Both the position numbers and the translations under genes were made by a program. Source: Leptolyngbyaceae cyanobacterium (GTDB lineage Bacteria; Cyanobacteriota; Cyanobacteriia; Phormidesmidales; Phormidesmidaceae). Taken from it: 64,000 nucleotides of DNA. The DNA lies in the NCBI GenBank assembly GCA_050331235.1, contig JBHJHA010000020.1, positions 1 through 64,000 on the forward strand, given 5' to 3'. Below, piece by piece: positions 1,261 through 10,063 of the stretch; the stretch's first letter is position 1; the number at the start of each line of letters is the position of its first letter. The notes under the pieces are model-generated. The model worked only from the letters and a program-made list of their open reading frames with translations. It was not told where the DNA came from and made no database searches.

Positions 1261-2459
1261 CTAGATATCAGTCGGTTTGAGATGGTCGAGCTTCATCTTG
1301 TCCAGGTATCGCTTCTCAATGACTTCACTCGAATAGCCTACCCATCGTGCAATGGTAGTTAGGAATGGCCCTGAAGCGCTTGCAAAGTGATGAATGTGTC
1401 TCGGCAGTTGTATGGGGTTATCTTGATATTGTCCTTAACCTCCAGTCCTAACCGGGTCAGCACTTTCGTCCAGGCTCGATCCGAGAAGTTGCTTTCCGTA
1501 ATGGTTTTGCCTTTCGGTGACTTGAAGACCAGTTCCTCCGCCTCAGGGGCTATAGGGCGAATGGCTTTAAGTAGCTCTTTCAGGCGTGTTGGACAGCTGA
1601 ACCAGCGTTTAACATTAGTTTTGTCTTCTTTGCGCCGTTCGAGACGTCCCGAGATTTCGACAATACTTTCGTGAAAATGAACTCGATGGCAATCCGGCGT
1701 CACACTCCCCCACCGCAAGCCAATGGCTTCACAGGGACGGCAGCCAGTCCAAAAGAGAAACTTGATGAAAGGCGCATAGTGCCGATAGTTCATGCCAGGG
1801 CGACTATCGGTTTCAAAGGCTGCAATAATCCGGTCTCGCTCTTCCATCGTGAAGGCCATGGGCGGCGGTGGCTGGGTCGGCGAGAGGTCGAGGTACATGC
1901 CCTCTAAGGGATTGTCATCAACCAATCTATGCTTGATGCCCCACTTGCAAGCTGCTGAGAGCTGCATCAAGGTGCGTCTGGCCTGAGATTCCGTTGTCAC
2001 CTTCAATAGCTCTCGGCGAAATTTAATGGAGTCCTTCAGGCCATCGGTTCTGCACTTACCCAAATGGGCCGTGACCGGGTCATAGGTGCCGTTAATCGTC
2101 TTGGGTGAAACATGGGGCGATTTGTATTCCACATACTGAGCCCAGATAGAGCGGATTGGGGTAATTTCCTGGGTCTTCTCTTTGAGCAGATTTTCCGGTC
2201 GATATTTATCTAGGGTCGGGTCAAAGTTCCCAGAGACAAAATCCAGCTCAATTTGTCGGGCCTTCTGCTCAGCCGCTTTGCGATTGATCGCAGTATCAGG
2301 AACCCCCAAGCTCAGATAGTATCTTTGTCCTTGCCAGCTAAACACGAGCTGTATGCGTCCGTGAGAAATCTTCACTTGGACGGAGCCTTTTTTGGCCTTT
2401 GGACGGCGGAGAGATGACGTGCGACTGGGTGCCAAGAGATTCCTGGGATTAAGAGGCAA
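1261..2459 (-). pseudogene. Tyrosine recombinase/integrase with N-terminal arm-DNA-binding (DUF3596-like) domain; frameshifted at about 1360
   Basis: Motifs RYYLSLG...NFDPTLDKY, TGCRPCE and PYNCRDTF. The frame stops at GHS-TAA (1359-1361), but the adjacent frame 1359..1261 continues TTIARWVGYSSEVIEKRYLDKMKLDHLKPTDI*, which holds the catalytic Tyr. Confidence 0.85.
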
Positions 2460-2463
2460 ATCT

Positions 2464-2483
2464 TTACCCCAAACTTACCCCAA
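2464..2483. repeat. TTACCCCAA direct repeat (x2), candidate integrase arm-type sites
   Basis: Copies at 2464-2472 and 2475-2483; inverted copy TTGGGGTAA at 2156-2164 inside the integrase gene. Confidence 0.5.
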
Positions 2484-2601
2484 TAATAGGCCTAAAACTG
2501 TCCAAATACACCCAATCCTGGGAGTGCCAGTGCTATGTGACGCTCGATCAGGTAATCCTGAAATCCCCTGGAATCATTGACTTTGGCGGGCTTTAGTAAA
2601 A

Positions 2602-2673
2602 AGCCGATGGCGGGATTTGAACCCGCGACCGCTCGATTACGAATCGAGTGCTCTACCACTGAGCCACATCGGC
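2602..2673 (-). tRNA. trnT: tRNA-Thr (anticodon CGT)
   Basis: GCCGATGTGGCTCAGTGGTAGAGCA-CTCGA TTCGTAA TCGAG-CGGTCGCGGGTTCAAATCCCGCCATCGGCT; full cloverleaf, CCA not encoded. Confidence 0.97.
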
Positions 2674-2958
2674 ATTGCGATTGACTAAATTAGCAGAGAA
2701 ATCGCAGGGCGGCAAGGACAGCTATAGATTGTGCTCGATCGCCGACTCCCAGATGGCGCTTTGTTAGAAGCAGAGATTTTGTGTAAAGGTCGATTCATGC
2801 TGTCATGGGTCGAAAACAGATAGCCTGACGGGCGCGTGGGCAATATCTGTCGATTTTCGTTCGCCAATCGCTTATTAGCCATTGAGTTGAGGCCCGTCGG
2901 TCCTAATCCAATCGCGATTAACGAACAAAAAAATGGAGTGATTTTTTTGGGCACCTGC

Positions 2959-2986
2959 TTGACGTTGAGAAGCCCGCAAGTAGTAT
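2959..2986 (+). promoter_or_regulatory. Putative sigma70-type promoter for the riboswitch transcript
   Basis: TTGACG (2959-2964), 16 nt, TAGTAT (2981-2986), about 20 nt upstream of the aptamer. Confidence 0.45.
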
Positions 2987-3002
2987 TTTGAATACAACAA
3001 AA

Positions 3003-3072
3003 ACCGTTCATCTCTTCATCACGTCAGTTGCGAAGGGACGGAAGTAAGGATGATTTCCTGAAGGAACGCGCC
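3003..3072 (+). ncRNA. Glutamine riboswitch (glnA motif, glutamine-I class)
   Basis: P1 CGTTC(3005-09)/GAACG(3064-68); P2 TCTCTTC/GAAGGGA; junction CGGAAGTA; P3 AGGA/TCCT; then GAAGGAACGCGCC. Matches the glnA motif consensus. Confidence 0.88.
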
Positions 3073-3106
3073 TCTCGTTCGATGCAACTCTCTTGAGGCG
3101 ATATTC

Positions 3107-3274
3107 ATGACTCACAATACTGCTGTACTGACGGAACTAGTCGGAGCTTTAGCGATCGCATTTGCTATTTTGTGTCCCATTTTTTGCTGGGTAATCGAAT
3201 CGCCCAAACGAGACAAAACGGTTTTTCGCACACCAATTTGGAGGCTGTCGTCACAGCCTCAGTCTGGACGCTAG
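3107..3274 (+). CDS. Small putative membrane protein (55 aa) directly downstream of the glutamine riboswitch
   Basis: MTHNTAVLTELVGALAIAFAILCPIFCWVIESPKRDKTVFRTPIWRLSSQPQSGR*; SD-like GAGGCG at 3095-3100; one hydrophobic segment followed by a basic tail. Confidence 0.7.
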   Translation: MTHNTAVLTELVGALAIAFAILCPIFCWVIESPKRDKTVFRTPIWRLSSQPQSGR

Positions 3275-3296
3275 ATCAATCTTTGACTAAGTTATT

Positions 3297-3437
3297 ATGC
3301 GATCGCGCGTCGGAGTTGGCGTTTGGCTGTGCCTAATCCTAACGGCTTTGTTTGTGGTGTATGCCAGACCCTACGGAAGTCCTGAGCAAACCTACCGAAT
3401 TGCTCAAGAATACTGCCGTCAGTATTCAATTCACTAA
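3297..3437 (+). CDS. Small putative membrane or exported protein (46 aa)
   Basis: MRSRVGVGVWLCLILTALFVVYARPYGSPEQTYRIAQEYCRQYSIH*; starts 22 nt after the previous stop; basic N-terminus plus a hydrophobic stretch; no clear SD. Confidence 0.5.
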   Translation: MRSRVGVGVWLCLILTALFVVYARPYGSPEQTYRIAQEYCRQYSIH

Positions 3438-3633
3438 AGCGCAACGAGCGAAACGGCCGATGTTAGTTTTCTAAACTCAGACTAGGATTGAAGCAATTCC
3501 AGATTTCCCTTTCATCTGCGGCAAGTGGAAATCTCTAACGGATAAACGTTATGCCGACGCTAAAACCGTGTCTCAAGACATTGGCACTCAGCCGTCACCT
3601 GGGTTTGGGGCGTAGATCAAGGATATTAGTCAG

Positions 3634-4446
3634 ATGCCATCTACCAGTTCGCTAGCTAACCGGCATATTTTGTATATTTCCCATGGTGGTGGGCCCTTAC
3701 CGCTGCTCGATGATCCGCAACATCGGGACATGGTGGCCAATTTGCAGGCGATCGCCGCTCAGCTGCCTCGACCCAAAGCAATCGTGGTGATCAGTGCCCA
3801 CTGGGAAGCTGCCGTCCCTACGCTAACCGCCGGTACCCAGCCACCGCTGATTTACGACTATTACGGTTTTCCCAAATCGGCATATCAACTCACCTATCCT
3901 GCCCCTGGGCATCCCGCCCTAGCGGCGGCGATCTGCGAACTGCTACAAACACAGGGGCTTGAGGTGAGGCTGACGACAGAGCGAGGCTTTGACCATGGGC
4001 TCTTTGTGCCGCTTAAGATCATGTATCCAGCCGCCGACATTCCCTGTGTGCAACTGTCGTTGGTCAAGGGATTGGATGCTAAGACCCATATCGTCATCGG
4101 TCAGGCGCTGTCACAGCTAGCGGCGGACAATGTGCTGATTCTCGGTTCCGGGTTTTCGTTTCACAATATGCAAGCCTTTCAAACCCCAGACACGGCTCAA
4201 ACCCGTGCACAGAATGAAGCCTTTGAGCAATGGCTGATTGAGACCTGTGCGAACCCCGACCTGGCAACTAGCGATCGCACGCATCGACTAATCAATTGGG
4301 AGACGGCCCCCGCGGCTCGATATTGTCATCCCAGAGAAGAGCACTTGCTGCCGCTGCACGTTTGTTATGGTGCCGCCCAGCAAGCCTGTCGTGAGTATTT
4401 TGAATTGACAGTCTTGGGTAAAAAAGCCAGCGTATATCTCTGGTGA
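3634..4446 (+). CDS. Class III extradiol dioxygenase (LigB / DOPA 4,5-dioxygenase / YgiD family)
   Basis: Motifs SHGGGP, ISAHWE, YDYYGFP, RGFDHG, GSGFSFHN and HPREEHLLPL. Confidence 0.9.
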   Translation: MPSTSSLANRHILYISHGGGPLPLLDDPQHRDMVANLQAIAAQLPRPKAIVVISAHWEAAVPTLTAGTQPPLIYDYYGFPKSAYQLTYPAPGHPALAAAICELLQTQGLEVRLTTERGFDHGLFVPLKIMYPAADIPCVQLSLVKGLDAKTHIVIGQALSQLAADNVLILGSGFSFHNMQAFQTPDTAQTRAQNEAFEQWLIETCANPDLATSDRTHRLINWETAPAARYCHPREEHLLPLHVCYGAAQQACREYFELTVLGKKASVYLW

Positions 4447-4556: not shown

Positions 4557-5219
4557 TCAAAGCAGTCCCCGATAACGGATGAACATTAGGATGGCTGCCC
4601 AGGCCCCCAGTGCTACCTTGACCGCAACGAGAATATTGAGTAATGGAATCCAACCGCCGCTACTGAGTAGGCCCATCTCCCCCTGGGGGAGCTCTAATCC
4701 CAATATAGATAGAGCTGCTAGGACAACGAAGATCAAAACGGAGACCTTTTCTAAGGTGGCGGCCCGCCAGCGTTTATAGAGCGCTTCCATCCACGTTGAG
4801 GAAGAGGTGATCGCGACGAGGCCGATCGCTGTTCCCCCCGCGACTCCGGCGGCAAACCCACCCCCCGGGCTAAGATGTCCCCGTAGGGCGAGTTCCACAC
4901 TAATGAGAGCCGCGATCGTTGCCCCTAGTCGAGCCAGCACGATCGAAGGCTGATCGGTAAATTGATGAACTTGGGGAGCTGGTTGCTCATCTGCTAGTAA
5001 ATAGCGCACCCCCATGATTGAGAGGCTAAAAACCACCACCTCAAAAATAGTGTCATACAGCCGGTTGCGGAAAATAATACCCGATACGGCATTAGGGACA
5101 CCGCTTTCCTGCACGATCGCCTCCACGATGGATAGGTCCGCCGTCTCTAACGCTGGATTGGGAAAAACCAGCATTTTGAGATACACCGCAATGCCGACAG
5201 CAATATAAACCCAGGTCAT
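4557..5219 (-). CDS. mrpB: Mrp/Mnh Na+/H+ antiporter subunit B
   Basis: NAVSGIIFRNRLYDTIFEV and GHLSPGGGFAAG; operon context. Confidence 0.88.
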   Translation of the reverse strand: MTWVYIAVGIAVYLKMLVFPNPALETADLSIVEAIVQESGVPNAVSGIIFRNRLYDTIFEVVVFSLSIMGVRYLLADEQPAPQVHQFTDQPSIVLARLGATIAALISVELALRGHLSPGGGFAAGVAGGTAIGLVAITSSSTWMEALYKRWRAATLEKVSVLIFVVLAALSILGLELPQGEMGLLSSGGWIPLLNILVAVKVALGAWAAILMFIRYRGLL

Positions 5220-5821
5220 GACTGTACCTCACAGGAATCAGTGGATGGAGATAGGGCAGGGGCAGGAGCCTTAATCGGTTGAGGCGGTGGGGTCAGTGAG
5301 ATCGCGCCCGCTGGTAACTGCCCGTGGAGCAACTGATGTAACTTGGGCACACGAGTCGTTAGTTGATAGGGGTATGCTGCTGTCGGGGTGGCCGTGAGCA
5401 TCCCATGGATTTCCTTGGCTGCCATCGCTGCTTGCAGCGTCTGGGGAGACGGGTAAACGACGCTTTCGAGCCGCAGATGGGATTTGGTCAGCGTTTGCCG
5501 CAGCGTTGTCAATATCTGGTTTTGAGGAGTCTGCGACTCTGGATCGTCGGCGATCGCCGACGCGTCCTCCGTCAAGAGGCCCACCCGCACCGTCATCGAT
5601 GACCGCACCGCGATCGCATACAGGGTGATGGAGAGCATGGTACCTACTAGGGCCTCAGTCAGGGCGACGTCCGCTGCGCCAAAGAGGGCATAGACCAGGG
5701 CTGCCACAGCCCCTAACATGCCGCGCATCACTAAGGCGTGATACGGATTTTTTTGAGTGACGACCATGGTCGCTGTCAGGGGCAACAGCGCCGCGATCGC
5801 CAGCATGTATGAGTCAAACAT
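5216..5821 (-). CDS. Mrp-associated DUF4040-type subunit (MrpA C-terminal-like)
   Basis: GAADVALTEALVGT motif; overlaps mrpB. Confidence 0.8.
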   Translation of the reverse strand: MFDSYMLAIAALLPLTATMVVTQKNPYHALVMRGMLGAVAALVYALFGAADVALTEALVGTMLSITLYAIAVRSSMTVRVGLLTEDASAIADDPESQTPQNQILTTLRQTLTKSHLRLESVVYPSPQTLQAAMAAKEIHGMLTATPTAAYPYQLTTRVPKLHQLLHGQLPAGAISLTPPPQPIKAPAPALSPSTDSCEVQS

Positions 5822-6105
5822 TAATCCGACCTCTCACTAGAGCAGTAGGCCAAGACATAGCCCAACACAGTATTCCAAATGGCTAGGGAGATAAGAGCCA
5901 GAACCAGTAGGGGCCACTCCCGGGGAATCTTGAGCAGTAGCCCCGCCACAATCGCCATTGACCCTAGGGTGTCTGCCACCGACAGACTGTGCAGTTTGTA
6001 AAGCACGGAGCGCTGGCCTAAGAGGGGCCAAGTGCCCCAAAACCAAAACACTATGCCAACGCCAATGAGGCTGTAGCTGGTGGCGTTAATGATGGTATTA
6101 GCCAT
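5821..6105 (-). CDS. mrpG: Mrp subunit G
   Basis: YKLHSLSVADTLG motif; three TM segments. Confidence 0.85.
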   Translation of the reverse strand: MANTIINATSYSLIGVGIVFWFWGTWPLLGQRSVLYKLHSLSVADTLGSMAIVAGLLLKIPREWPLLVLALISLAIWNTVLGYVLAYCSSERSD

Positions 6106-6106
6106 G

Positions 6107-6352
6107 TTAGTTCATCCGTTTAATCACGTGGGCTAAGAGCATCAGGGCCGCATTCCCCACGCTGAGAATGAGCACCCCCACCAGACCGATCATCCAGTCG
6201 TCGCGCAAGACCGACACCACCAAAATCAAGATAGAGGTCTTGGACGCGATACTGGCGAAGGCCAACATCTTTTGCCAAATGTCTTCGTCGTGCCAAGCTT
6301 CATAGACGGGGATGAGCAAAGCCCCAATCATGGGCCAAATGATGCTGCTCAT
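6107..6352 (-). CDS. mrpF: Mrp subunit F-like
   Basis: 81-aa, 3-TM protein between mrpE and mrpG. Confidence 0.7.
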   Translation of the reverse strand: MSSIIWPMIGALLIPVYEAWHDEDIWQKMLAFASIASKTSILILVVSVLRDDWMIGLVGVLILSVGNAALMLLAHVIKRMN

Positions 6353-6744
6353 GGCGACCTCCTTCGGCGTTGAATGCGATGGACCTCATACCAGCCGTCG
6401 TCGTGGTACTTCACCACGATGGTTTTGGGTGTAAAGGTAATCAGAAAGACGTCTAAGAAAATGAGTCCGGAGCTGCGGCGAGGCTTGACCCGATCCATCG
6501 TGGTGGCCTCAGCGTGGTGGGGCCGCACAATAATCTCGATCGCCTCGATGAAGGCTTGGGGAATGGCCACGATCACCTCACCCACCGTCCGGAGCCAGTC
6601 TGTTAGCTGACTAGAGCGCACCGGCGAGCAGCGGGGAATCAACAGGGCGATTGCCACCCCCAGCAGCACATTGACAGGGCTGACATCCGCCGTCAACAAA
6701 AACCAAATGCCGAGCCGGAGGCCGATTTCTAAAAGACCGATCAT
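6349..6744 (-). CDS. mrpE: Mrp subunit E
   Basis: ITFTPKT motif; start MIGLLE at 6744 overlaps the mrpD stop (ATGA). Confidence 0.85.
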   Translation of the reverse strand: MIGLLEIGLRLGIWFLLTADVSPVNVLLGVAIALLIPRCSPVRSSQLTDWLRTVGEVIVAIPQAFIEAIEIIVRPHHAEATTMDRVKPRRSSGLIFLDVFLITFTPKTIVVKYHDDGWYEVHRIQRRRRSP

Positions 6745-8165
6745 GCCAGCACCCCCCAAAACAGCAGCATTAGCATGAACGTCATAACTCCAATTAGATG
6801 TTCAAACCGTTCCAGTAATCGAGGTAGGCGCACCGCCCAGTGCTGCACGATGAGCAGGTAAGCCCCCCAGCCGATAGCGATCGTGACCAACGGCTTGATC
6901 ACGTTGGACCAGCTGTAAGCTTCGTAATAAACGACATTGGCCACGGCGAGCCCCCCTAGCAAGATCCCAATCGCCCACCAAAACCCAGGCTTGGCAGACT
7001 TTTCAGGATCCGGGGCATGGGGCAAGAAAATGAATTTAGCAAAGGAAATGGCCGTACCCACAGCGGCCAAGTTCATCGCGATCACCTGCCACGGCAGCAG
7101 CGATTTCATCGTTAGCACCTTCGCCCCAAATCCTGACAGCAGGGGGAAGCCCGAGATCGAGAAGCTGGCTAAAACCAGGGCTATCCAAACTGGGGTGGGG
7201 ATGGTCGTCTGCTTGAGTTCCTTAAAGCGACGACTGGGCAGATTGCCAGCCGCCAAAAACAGTGCCGCCTTCACTAAGCCATGGGTCAGCGCATAAAAGC
7301 CACCAACGGCAGGAGCTGCTAGCACAAAACCCAATTGGGAAACGGTGTGAAAGGCCAACATTCGCTTAGTGTCTTTTTCCACCATGGCGTAGCCAACCCC
7401 CAGCAGCGCTGTGCAAACGCCAAACAGCCGCACAATAGGATCAATTGTTTCCAACATGAGGGCAAACCGCACCAAGGGAAACACCCCCGCTTTGATCACC
7501 GCTCCCGAGAGCAAGGCTGAAACTGGAGTTTCTGATTCTGAATGGGTCAGGGGCAACCATAACCCTGAGACAAAAATGCCTCCCTTAGTCAGCAGGCCCA
7601 GTAAAATCAGCGCGATCGCCTCGGGTGGGGCTTGCCCCAATCCCTCATAGGCAAAGGATTGATTAGCCTGATATACCAATACCGCCCCGATGAGATAGAA
7701 CAGCATGGCGGTATTGCTGACGAAGAGATAGCGCAACCCGACCCAAATAGAACGGTTGGTGCGGGGATAGGCAATCAACAAACAGGTGGCGATGCTAATC
7801 ACCTCGAGCGCTACATACAGACTGATCAAATCAGCACAGATAAAAGCTGAGTTGACGCTGCCGTGGAGGATAATCACCTGGGTATAAAAAAACGCTGACT
7901 TGCCCTGTTGCCAGCAGTAGAGAATCACCGCCGCAGTTACCAGCGCATTGGTGAGAATGAAAAAGCCGCTGACCGAGTCGATGATTAAGGTGACGCCAAA
8001 ACTATCGACTAGATTTAGCGTTTCGGGCATGGGAGCAAACAGATGCAATAGGCTGTAGCCCGTTGACAGCACCGCGATCGCCAGGGCCAAGGACCGCGCC
8101 AACTGCGGAAACAGGTAAATACTGAAGCCAACTAAAAAGGGAAGGGCAATCCACGCAATGGTCAT
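6741..8165 (-). CDS. mrpD: Mrp subunit D (antiporter-like proton-translocating subunit)
   Basis: DLISLYVALEV, WLPLTHSESETPVSALLSG and KRMLAFHTVSQLG. Confidence 0.9.
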   Translation of the reverse strand: MTIAWIALPFLVGFSIYLFPQLARSLALAIAVLSTGYSLLHLFAPMPETLNLVDSFGVTLIIDSVSGFFILTNALVTAAVILYCWQQGKSAFFYTQVIILHGSVNSAFICADLISLYVALEVISIATCLLIAYPRTNRSIWVGLRYLFVSNTAMLFYLIGAVLVYQANQSFAYEGLGQAPPEAIALILLGLLTKGGIFVSGLWLPLTHSESETPVSALLSGAVIKAGVFPLVRFALMLETIDPIVRLFGVCTALLGVGYAMVEKDTKRMLAFHTVSQLGFVLAAPAVGGFYALTHGLVKAALFLAAGNLPSRRFKELKQTTIPTPVWIALVLASFSISGFPLLSGFGAKVLTMKSLLPWQVIAMNLAAVGTAISFAKFIFLPHAPDPEKSAKPGFWWAIGILLGGLAVANVVYYEAYSWSNVIKPLVTIAIGWGAYLLIVQHWAVRLPRLLERFEHLIGVMTFMLMLLFWGVLA

Positions 8166-8167
8166 GG

Positions 8168-8512
8168 CTAGGGCTGGTGCTCCGTCTCAATGTCTGCAAT
8201 GTCTAGGGTGGGGATGTCGCGGGCCAGCTTCATGACCCCCACCAGCATTAAGGCTTGAATCGAAAAACCAATGACGATCGCAGTCAAAATTACCGCCTGC
8301 GGTACCGGATCGGCATAGGCCGCTGCGGGGTTCTCAATGGTCGCGATCGGCGTAAAGGTGCCGCCTCGGGCTGCAACCAGCACGTAATAGGCAATGACGC
8401 CGGTACTCATCACATCCATGGAGATGATTTTCATCATCAAGTTTTTCTTCAAGATGATGCCAAAAAAACCACCCATCACAGTGGCAAATACAAAGGCTTC
8501 TAGAACAACCAT
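8168..8512 (-). CDS. mrpC: Mrp subunit C
   Basis: DPVPQAVILTAIVIG; start adjusted to MVVLEAF. Confidence 0.9.
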   Translation of the reverse strand: MVVLEAFVFATVMGGFFGIILKKNLMMKIISMDVMSTGVIAYYVLVAARGGTFTPIATIENPAAAYADPVPQAVILTAIVIGFSIQALMLVGVMKLARDIPTLDIADIETEHQP

Positions 8513-8644
8513 GTCTCTTCGGTGGATAAATACTGGAAACGGAGGACGGGGAGAGCGATCGCCGGGCAAAGTGTGTCAATCAGCCAGAAAGAGAGGCATG
8601 CCCCCTACTCGGCGACTTTGACCCGGCCAAGACAAACGCGCGGC

Positions 8645-10063
8645 TTAGTCCACAGGGACCGTGGAGGCTTCCGAGGCATCTGCGGCTGTCACATCCTGAC
8701 CACTCAAAGCCCATTGCAGCAAGGGCGGCGCAATGAACGTAGTCAAAATCACCATAACGATAATGGCGGCTTCGAGGGGCTTGTCTAAGACGCCGCTGGC
8801 CGAGCCAATGCCCGCAAATACCAAGCCGACTTCTCCCCGAGGGACCATCCCGATGCCGATCGCCAATCGATTGATGCCTGGTTTGCCAAACACGACCCAG
8901 CCAGTAACCACCTTGCCCACGATGGCAACGGCAATCAAAAAGGCGGCAATGATCAGGCCGGCTCGATTTTCCGGCACCGCCGGATTCAGCACACCGAGGT
9001 CAGCTTTAGCCCCCACCGTGACAAAGAAAATCGGCACCAAGATGTCGGCAATGGGCATGACCTGGTAGTCGAGCTCCTTGCGCCGGTCTGTTTCATCCAG
9101 CACTAGACCGGCTGCAAAAGCACCCAAAATCGCCTCCAGATGAATCACATTGGCCAAAAACGCCATCGCCAACGCAAAGGTAAAGGCGGGGATCAAAAGG
9201 GCACCTCGGGTCTGCAAACGATCCGCGATCGCCTCAAAGCTTTGGTTGAAAAACTTACCCAGTAGCACCGAGCCTAATAGGAAAGTGCTCGCGCTGACAA
9301 TCAGGTAAATCACATTCCACAGGTCGACCGCTCCTGTCTTGGACAAGCTAGCCACCACCGCCAGTACGATGATGCCGAGCACATCGTCCATGACAGCCGC
9401 CCCAACAATGATTTGGCCCTCAGTTGACTTTAAATGGCCGAGCTCCGACAGCACCTTTGACGTGATGCCAATGCTTGTAGCGGTCAGGGCCGCACCCGCA
9501 AAAACAGCAGGAATCACCGGCGTATGGAACAGCGTCACCAGTCCGACCGTGCCCAACACAAACGGAGCGACCACCCCCACCACGGCCACAATTGCCGCCT
9601 GAGACCCCACCTTTGTTAGCTCTCGCAAATCTGACTCCAGGCCAATCTCAAAGAGCAGGACAATAACGCCGAGCTCAGCCAGAACTGAAATCACCTCGCT
9701 CTGGCTGGTAAAAATATGGGTCATGGCTTCAGCATCTAAATCGCCCAGCCACTGCAGACCCGACATGATGACCGAGTCCGCCGCCGCCGCACCCGTTTCT
9801 GGAAAAACGATTAAGTGAAGCGCTGAAACCCCAACAACCACCCCACCCACTAACTCACCCAAAACTGGCGGTAGGTCCAGCCGTTTGGAGAGTTCTCCGC
9901 CCAGCTTGCTCATTAGGTAGACCACAACTAGCGTGACTAACACGCCCGCCAGCACAAAAGAGCCATAATCGGCCTCGGGGGTTGCTGCAAATAAAGAGGT
10001 GGCAGGAGCCAAGACATCGATACCGAATATCGCGGCCACATTATCCATGAAGTTCGAAATCAT
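8645..10063 (-). CDS. nhaS3: CPA2-family Na+/H+ antiporter (NhaS3/NapA type)
   Basis: LLFEIGLES, ATSIGIT, AAVMDDVLG and GMVPRGEVGLVFA. Confidence 0.88.
   Translation of the reverse strand: MISNFMDNVAAIFGIDVLAPATSLFAATPEADYGSFVLAGVLVTLVVVYLMSKLGGELSKRLDLPPVLGELVGGVVVGVSALHLIVFPETGAAAADSVIMSGLQWLGDLDAEAMTHIFTSQSEVISVLAELGVIVLLFEIGLESDLRELTKVGSQAAIVAVVGVVAPFVLGTVGLVTLFHTPVIPAVFAGAALTATSIGITSKVLSELGHLKSTEGQIIVGAAVMDDVLGIIVLAVVASLSKTGAVDLWNVIYLIVSASTFLLGSVLLGKFFNQSFEAIADRLQTRGALLIPAFTFALAMAFLANVIHLEAILGAFAAGLVLDETDRRKELDYQVMPIADILVPIFFVTVGAKADLGVLNPAVPENRAGLIIAAFLIAVAIVGKVVTGWVVFGKPGINRLAIGIGMVPRGEVGLVFAGIGSASGVLDKPLEAAIIVMVILTTFIAPPLLQWALSGQDVTAADASEASTVPVD

Follow-up and report, generated by a model that had tools for sequence, protein, structure and literature searches.

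Predicted membrane peptides as a recurring cargo of the cyanobacterial glutamine riboswitch, from a locus of a Leptolyngbyaceae cyanobacterium

The closest described counterpart of the locus analysed here is the leader of gifB (IF17) from Synechocystis sp. PCC 6803, for which PMC6212724 postulates an anti-SD/SD platform and reports that the aptamer activates expression after ammonium addition, stating also that NtcA boxes lying over the -10 element repress. In the survey of the same source, 25 of 28 genomes have DUF4278 behind the aptamer, and 77 downstream genes are listed as 'hypothetical, no CDD match' and left uncharacterised. Small proteins that act on membrane complexes are known from other contexts. 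SliP4/HliR1 and SbtC of Synechocystis are small, previously overlooked, have one predicted membrane helix each and act on membrane complexes (PMC5126843, PMC11848123, bioRxiv 10.1101/2025.11.25.690420), and SbtC, which acts on SbtA, sets a precedent for a small protein working on a transporter. Also, according to bioRxiv 10.1101/2023.09.04.555848, the protein sP36 of Methanosarcina mazei binds AmtB1 after an ammonium upshift. Within the full-text literature, mostly excluding subscription papers, we found no membrane peptide family described behind a glutamine aptamer.

The locus lies in a window of 64,000 nucleotides, the whole stretch of DNA under analysis, from a Leptolyngbyaceae cyanobacterium (GenBank assembly GCA_050331235.1, contig JBHJHA010000020.1, positions 1 to 64,000). 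An initial annotation had placed on it a promoter, a glutamine aptamer, a Shine-Dalgarno (SD) sequence and two short open reading frames, ORF1 and ORF2, and every one of these elements is present where it had been put, all on the plus strand. The promoter-like site (2959–2986, from a motif scan) is of the sigma70 type, with TTGACG as -35 (2959–2964), TAGTAT as -10 (2981–2986) and a spacer of 16; taken alone such a site is at chance level, with 1 found versus 1.8 expected, and its position is conserved, 19 of 27 related loci having YTGAC at the corresponding offset (promoter counts exclude L101 and L102). The aptamer (3003–3072) matches the full model of RF01739, positions 1–53, at 50.4 bits (E 4.4e-8; gathering score 35) without any non-standard pair, and presents the P1-P2-P3 junction with the conserved core CGUUCA, GACGGAAGUA and GAAGGAACGC, which is invariant across 19 aligned loci. 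By this covariance-model match, the check that the initial annotation had asked for, the element is a genuine type-1 glutamine riboswitch. The same model is above its gathering score in 20 of 20 related loci scanned (out of 22 non-window loci) and is found in 5 of 20 more distant loci of the ORF1 family, which come from four other genome families.

The anti-SD CGCCUC (3069–3074) overlaps the 3' end of the aptamer and pairs with the SD of ORF1, GAGGCG (3095–3100), in both the minimum-energy and the centroid folds, so that the riboswitch is predicted to lie in a 5' leader equipped with an expression platform, the anti-SD standing 3' of P1. When P1 is imposed and the next three bases are kept unpaired, the predicted probability of an unpaired SD changes from 0.01 in the free fold to 0.44 (median of 28 loci) and, for the window copy, from 0.02 to 0.29. 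The aptamer class, the anti-SD/SD platform and a predicted ON state under nitrogen excess are thus those of the gifB leader. In relatives, the likeness extends to an NtcA box that overlies the -10 element: using the consensus of PMC6212724, 18 of 27 related loci have a perfect GTA-N8-TAC there, and 22 of 27 have one when a single mismatch is allowed. The window copy carries a degenerate NtcA-like box (2980–2995), which can be read as GTA-N10-TAC or GTA-N7-TAC and has two mismatches from the consensus at the N8 spacing. Across the family, the strict box is present at 41 of the 70 loci that have an aptamer and at 19 of the 70 that lack one, versus 5.8% in shuffles. Five family members (L141, L142, L144, L151 and L170) have a 9-residue N-terminal extension, no SD and GTA-N8-TAC only 16–34 bases ahead of the start; their messages are possibly leaderless.

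Comparison of 140 distinct starts of ORF1-family genes relates the SD to the aptamer. The SD reads GAGGCG at 65 of 70 aptamer-bearing loci versus 5 of 70 aptamer-less ones, and 62 of the 70 aptamer loci have CGCC after the core; since GAGGCG tracks the presence of the aptamer, ORF1 is taken to be the target of the switch. At least three of the five aptamer-less loci with GAGGCG have visibly decayed aptamers. Ongoing loss of the riboswitch is seen at L076, L098, L112 and L135, where the aptamer is decayed and the GAGGCG retained. Aptamer presence among the 140 starts was called by pattern, with Rfam concordant on the 20 distant loci checked, and the loci were taken from search rankings, not at random, with kin that are not independent, for which reason these counts are only descriptive. 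Half of the loci lack the aptamer and many lack the NtcA box, and the family overall is therefore not specific to nitrogen.

ORF1 (3107–3274) encodes a peptide of 55 aa, from an uncatalogued family marked by the motif P-x-L-C-W, with a predicted membrane helix at about residues 12–30 and a tail that is poorly conserved beyond residue 33. Its identity to relatives is 17–33%. The initial annotation had called both products single-TM microproteins, which hydropathy predictions uphold for ORF1 and only in part for ORF2: the best 19-residue Kyte-Doolittle means of the window copies are 2.57 and 2.42, respectively, and a value of 1.6 or more is reached by 21 of 21 ORF1 copies (as by 56 of 56 rows of three ORF1 subfamily alignments) versus 10 of 21 ORF2 copies. 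Lysine and arginine are almost absent N-terminal of the helix of ORF1-family peptides and number 1.2–1.5 C-terminal of it, and the AlphaFold model of ORF1 consists of one helix, residues 3–30, with a pLDDT of 86–98. Hydropathy, charge distribution and the model together point to a single helix of N-out/C-in orientation; in this predicted layout, a single membrane helix in less than 60 aa, ORF1 is like the small membrane regulators of transporters. Like IF7/IF17 and the DUF4278 proteins, which are soluble, it is small and predicted to be under the same dual control; the cargo differs from that of the gifB leader in being a hydrophobic single-helix peptide without DUF4278.

The dN/dS comparison proposed in the initial annotation gives a median of 0.30 for the ORF1 core (135 unsaturated of 190 pairs) and 0.78 for the tail, and also indicates purifying selection on ORF2, at 0.33. 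The other five frames of ORF1 contain stops in 16–20 of 20 rows each. At the level of codon comparison, these values and the stops show that ORF1 is under purifying selection. Conservation is concentrated around the motif, as counted from its proline in 138 anchored members: Trp at +4 in 96%, Leu at +2 in 82%, Arg at +9 in 61% and Pro at +7 in 60%. Two rows were left out of both alignments, L048 (a chance match without aptamer) and L041 (divergent), L040 was left out of that of ORF1 for an in-frame stop and L188 was left out of the ORF1 tree, a quick one over 43 columns that is used only for the clade of the window locus, type A (SH-aLRT 99).

Family peptides measure 35–55 aa. A broad profile collects 157 cluster representatives, mostly of 34–60 aa, with members in 119 of 173 host-family genomes and at most 5 per genome, and matches 1 of 5 additional genomes. 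A profile of the second subfamily, type B, which aligns with type A at 98.6% probability, matches 65 of 401 genomes of the class, with 38 matches outside the host family or in the source genome. The family is present in at least 12 further cyanobacterial families among those sampled. The broad profile finds no match in G350, a Synechocystis-type genome in which the hliR1 primer published for Synechocystis has an exact match.

As the initial annotation had surmised, neither peptide resembles IF17/DUF4278: PF14105 matches neither ORF1, ORF2 nor their alignments, while positive controls from the source genome match it at E 7e-11 to 5e-22. Nor did the family libraries searched yield a credible match of either ORF to a characterised family. 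The genes had been described as unannotated, which is right in that the family is uncatalogued and needs qualifying in that some homologues stand as 'hypothetical protein' in NCBI. The names under which homologues are listed, Leptolyngbya, Halomicronema and Coleofasciculus, mark the source genome as cyanobacterial. For the ORF1 family no fitting Pfam, NCBIfam or PDB entry was found, and in the ESM Atlas an ORF1 paralogue reaches a best score of 0.80 to clusters without names. Occasional matches were judged to be hydrophobic noise, namely MerF (1 of 51 members, E 6e-4) and OppC_N and SosA (single members, near 0.05).

A serious rival to a transporter as partner is a complex of the thylakoid or respiratory membrane (NDH-1, cytochrome b6f, a photosystem or ATP synthase), of which ORF1 would be an accessory subunit controlled by nitrogen status, adjusting electron flow once nitrate reduction no longer draws electrons. 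Size and an N-out single helix are what small photosynthetic subunits look like, and the aptamer-less paralogues suggest a general membrane role under several regulators. PsaI, in particular, bears a P-x-x-C-W motif. However, PsaI (PF00796) gives at most 0.5 bits against four profiles, PSI_8 matches none of 51 members, and the PsaI of the source genome has no similarity to ORF1. A further precedent is SliP4, of 37 aa and with a single helix; here too homology, prompted by the published primer MSNLIAVAF, is rejected at about 0 bits against all five ORF1-family profiles, and SliP4 differs from ORF1 in being light-induced. Besides, ORF1 resembles no Pfam, NCBIfam or PDB entry, and its family is missing from G350 and from most genome families sampled, unlike core photosynthetic subunits. 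Weighing these points, we regard an accessory subunit as rather unlikely, and the adjustment of electron flow by it equally so.

The source genome holds five glutamine aptamers, three of which head DUF4278 genes, the two others being those of the window locus and of C35 (C35:133760-134011, L002). The C35 aptamer (51.9 bits) heads a 41-aa type-B paralogue of ORF1 without ORF2. As the other three aptamers head DUF4278 genes, the ORF1 peptide and the IF17 family have their control in common. A third ORF1-family paralogue, without aptamer, is found on C51 (6390–6488, L221), where a direct repeat of about 18 bases spans the stop codon. Judging from sequence, then, ORF1 is the core of the unit, and aptamer-led and aptamer-less paralogues occur together in the source genome and across cyanobacteria. 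The ORF1 family is thus a second recurring cargo class of the glutamine riboswitch, beside DUF4278/IF17, the regulator itself being known. At C50:43934-44306 (L001, L004) two aptamer and DUF4278 units stand in tandem, the genes having 56 aa and an aptamer each and the first promoter a perfect GTA-N8-TAC; the tandem arrangement recurs in the relatives L010 and L014. At L174 (G003:C35), an aptamer-less ORF1-family gene lies directly 3' of an ORF with a terminal YRG motif like that of DUF4278 genes, and may be the second gene of a glutamine-controlled message.

The small size and hydrophobicity of ORF1, its sequestered SD and its up to five paralogues per genome would also suit a peptide that acts like a type I toxin or depolarises the membrane and that RNA structure keeps from being translated. 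Yet it is a metabolite aptamer that does the sequestering, the peptide is predicted to be expressed in nitrogen plenty, no toxin family was matched and the promoter scan finds no minus-strand promoter-like site in 2400–4200; we hold a toxin to be very improbable. That the window copy is the decaying relic of a working cassette is somewhat less remote, and still improbable. The window ORF1 is the longest branch of its clade (2.04), its identity to relatives is low, the NtcA box is degenerate, helix 1 of ORF2 (see below) weak, and broken copies occur among relatives. Against decay, both frames are open, the aptamer core, anti-SD and SD are intact, and the window ORF2 is 38–72% identical to relatives and keeps all 7 invariant residues.

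A distinct scenario results for ORF2 (3297–3437), whose 46 aa comprise an N-terminal hydrophobic helix, the sequence RPYGSP and a C-terminal C-x-Q-x-x-I-H, without a SD. A search of the 173 host-family genomes for ORF2 matches 23, source genome included, and in 22 of these 23 the synteny sought in the initial annotation is found, an aptamer and an ORF1-like gene lying directly upstream; the 23rd is a chance match, and of the 22 loci one carries a stop within the ORF1 frame and another is divergent. The two-gene cassette proposed there holds as far as both ORFs are conserved, and is not a fixed arrangement: among 30 type-A ORF1 loci, 19 have an intact ORF2, 3 a broken one and 8 none, and the ORF2 profile matches just 2 of 401 genomes drawn phylum-wide, both of the host genus. 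ORF2 is therefore accessory and lineage-restricted. As a protein it has no NCBIfam match for the sequence itself and no usable match in the ESM Atlas; SteA-like_C and DUF6821 (1 of 21 members each) were judged hydrophobic noise, a cleaved signal peptide was rejected on a V-Y-A site that is not conserved, and a distant paralogy to ORF1 has an hhalign probability of 57% over 15 columns only.

RNAalifold pairs the two most conserved codon blocks of ORF2 with each other and adds a second hairpin. Helix 1 (3325–3381) joins 3325–3337 with 3370–3381, is kept in relatives and is weak in the window copy, whereas hairpin 2 (3408–3427) has 8 bp and the loop CCGU and changes on both sides across relatives, which explains the covariation of Tyr...Tyr and Cys...His in ORF2. 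On the alignment from which the structure was itself derived, 92.5% of stem cells are paired and 6 of 19 pairs show both-sided change, a combination that 0 of 500 shuffles equals and slid controls, at 29–48%, fall short of. Compared with synonymous recodings, the codons used are biased towards helix 1 (median fraction 0.03) and equally towards an alternative in which its GGCAG segment pairs instead with the 5' arm of hairpin 2; fourfold sites are pairing-restricted within the stem and free outside, and the whole ORF2 folds with mild stability only (mean z -0.63). No Rfam family was found for this RNA, with the window copy searched at the gathering score and one relative at E up to 10, and a covariance model built for it is found in 24 of 151 host-family genomes, at the cassette every time.

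These data raise the question of whether the region acts mainly as an RNA, either as a 3' stabiliser or as a small RNA released by processing, with the peptide secondary. Complementarity between the most conserved codons above that of 500 of 500 shuffles, the codon choice and the fourfold sites speak for it, as do the lack of a SD-like core in all 21 copies and the loci L069 and L070, which keep the helices though the ORF2 frame is broken. However, the stems of these two broken copies are conserved no more than those of intact copies, so that recent loss of ORF2 explains the retention of the helices too, and the residues of helix 1 are kept in the window copy in spite of its weak pairing. Codons outside the stems are still constrained, with pN/pS 0.61 (bootstrap 0.48–0.74) versus 1.00 and 1.17 in shifted frames. 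Furthermore, all 21 aligned copies, from a protein search that favours open frames, start with ATG, end in varied stops (TAA 10, TAG 7, TGA 4) and have indels in multiples of three. A mainly RNA role is accordingly one we think fairly unlikely; it bears on ORF2 alone and leaves room for the main reading of ORF1, as a nitrogen-controlled membrane peptide. We consider it likely that ORF2 is translated and selected as a protein and lean, a little less firmly, to the RNA structure of the region being functional.

The surroundings of the cassette vary. No intrinsic terminator was found in 2400–4200, hence none between ORF2 and the same-strand gene for a LigB/DODA-type extradiol dioxygenase (3634–4446), which follows 196 bases 3' of ORF2 and is not conserved as a neighbour among relatives. 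On the other side of tRNA-Thr(CGT), a tyrosine-integrase-like gene (1359–2673; Arm-DNA-bind_2, weak Phage_integrase) adjoins the 3' end of the tRNA and likely marks the border of an integrated element; the relative L034 likewise has, upstream, a tRNA together with an integrase of this kind. The membrane-protein ORFs that run along 4557–10063 on the minus strand resemble, by eye, an operon for a cation-proton antiporter of the Mrp/Mnh type, preceded by an antiporter of the CPA2 type. Across 126 distinct loci of the family no nitrogen-transport gene is a conserved neighbour, and the largest neighbour clusters count 13, 9 and 9, with no conserved functional neighbour. A link to nitrogen fixation is rejected, a nifD-like match being present in 10 of 24 cassette genomes and, among all 173 genomes, in 62 (Fisher p 0.65).

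By analogy with gifB (PMC6212724), low glutamine would leave the SD of ORF1 masked by the anti-SD, glutamine would engage a conserved C in a long-range pair and thereby free the SD, and under nitrogen limitation NtcA would repress transcription. Expression would then occur only when 2-oxoglutarate is low and glutamine high, and that the two inputs act together on ORF1 is, on this analogy, very likely. The peptide would sit N-out/C-in, and its composition makes it quite probable that the P-x-L-C-W-x-L-P-x-R end is a binding patch at the cytoplasmic face. The partner may be an ammonium, nitrate or urea transporter, which would make the peptide a membrane counterpart of the GS inactivating factors; this we propose tentatively, because the gene characterised under dual control damps nitrogen assimilation and because small proteins act on AmtB1 and SbtA. 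A complex prediction of the Amt permease of the source genome with ORF1 residues 1–40 scored 0.00, controls not being folded, and weighs on neither side of the question of binding. As a functional model we take sP36, a small protein on AmtB1 that is archaeal and cytoplasmic and relocates to the membrane; it is likened to ORF1 by function and not by sequence. SbtC is set apart by its 80 aa, its low-CO2 induction and its place beside sbtA. ORF2 would be transcribed along with ORF1 as an optional modifier, its translation probably coupled to that of ORF1, on an mRNA with selected structure in which the GGCAG segment may pair upstream or downstream, a possible switch.

The whole reading, in which a riboswitch-fused ORF1 peptide made in nitrogen plenty binds a membrane protein and lowers nitrogen uptake, is one to which we give not quite even chances. 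More doubtful is its widest form, that microproteins controlled by glutamine riboswitch and NtcA are the nitrogen-import inactivators of non-model cyanobacteria, a membrane arm of IF7/IF17 that model strains lack, with a second gene that in one lineage doubles as a possibly switching RNA. The glutamine riboswitch of cyanobacterial genomes is so far known almost wholly from DUF4278/IF17 genes, and the absence of the ORF1 family from the Synechocystis-type genome tested would explain why it was overlooked. Its regulation predicts the time of action, the ammonium upshift. If the target is a transporter, the peptide would add an extra layer to the cyanobacterial shut-off of nitrogen uptake; more generally, ORF1 likely serves to readjust a membrane protein, which may be a nitrogen importer, in nitrogen plenty.
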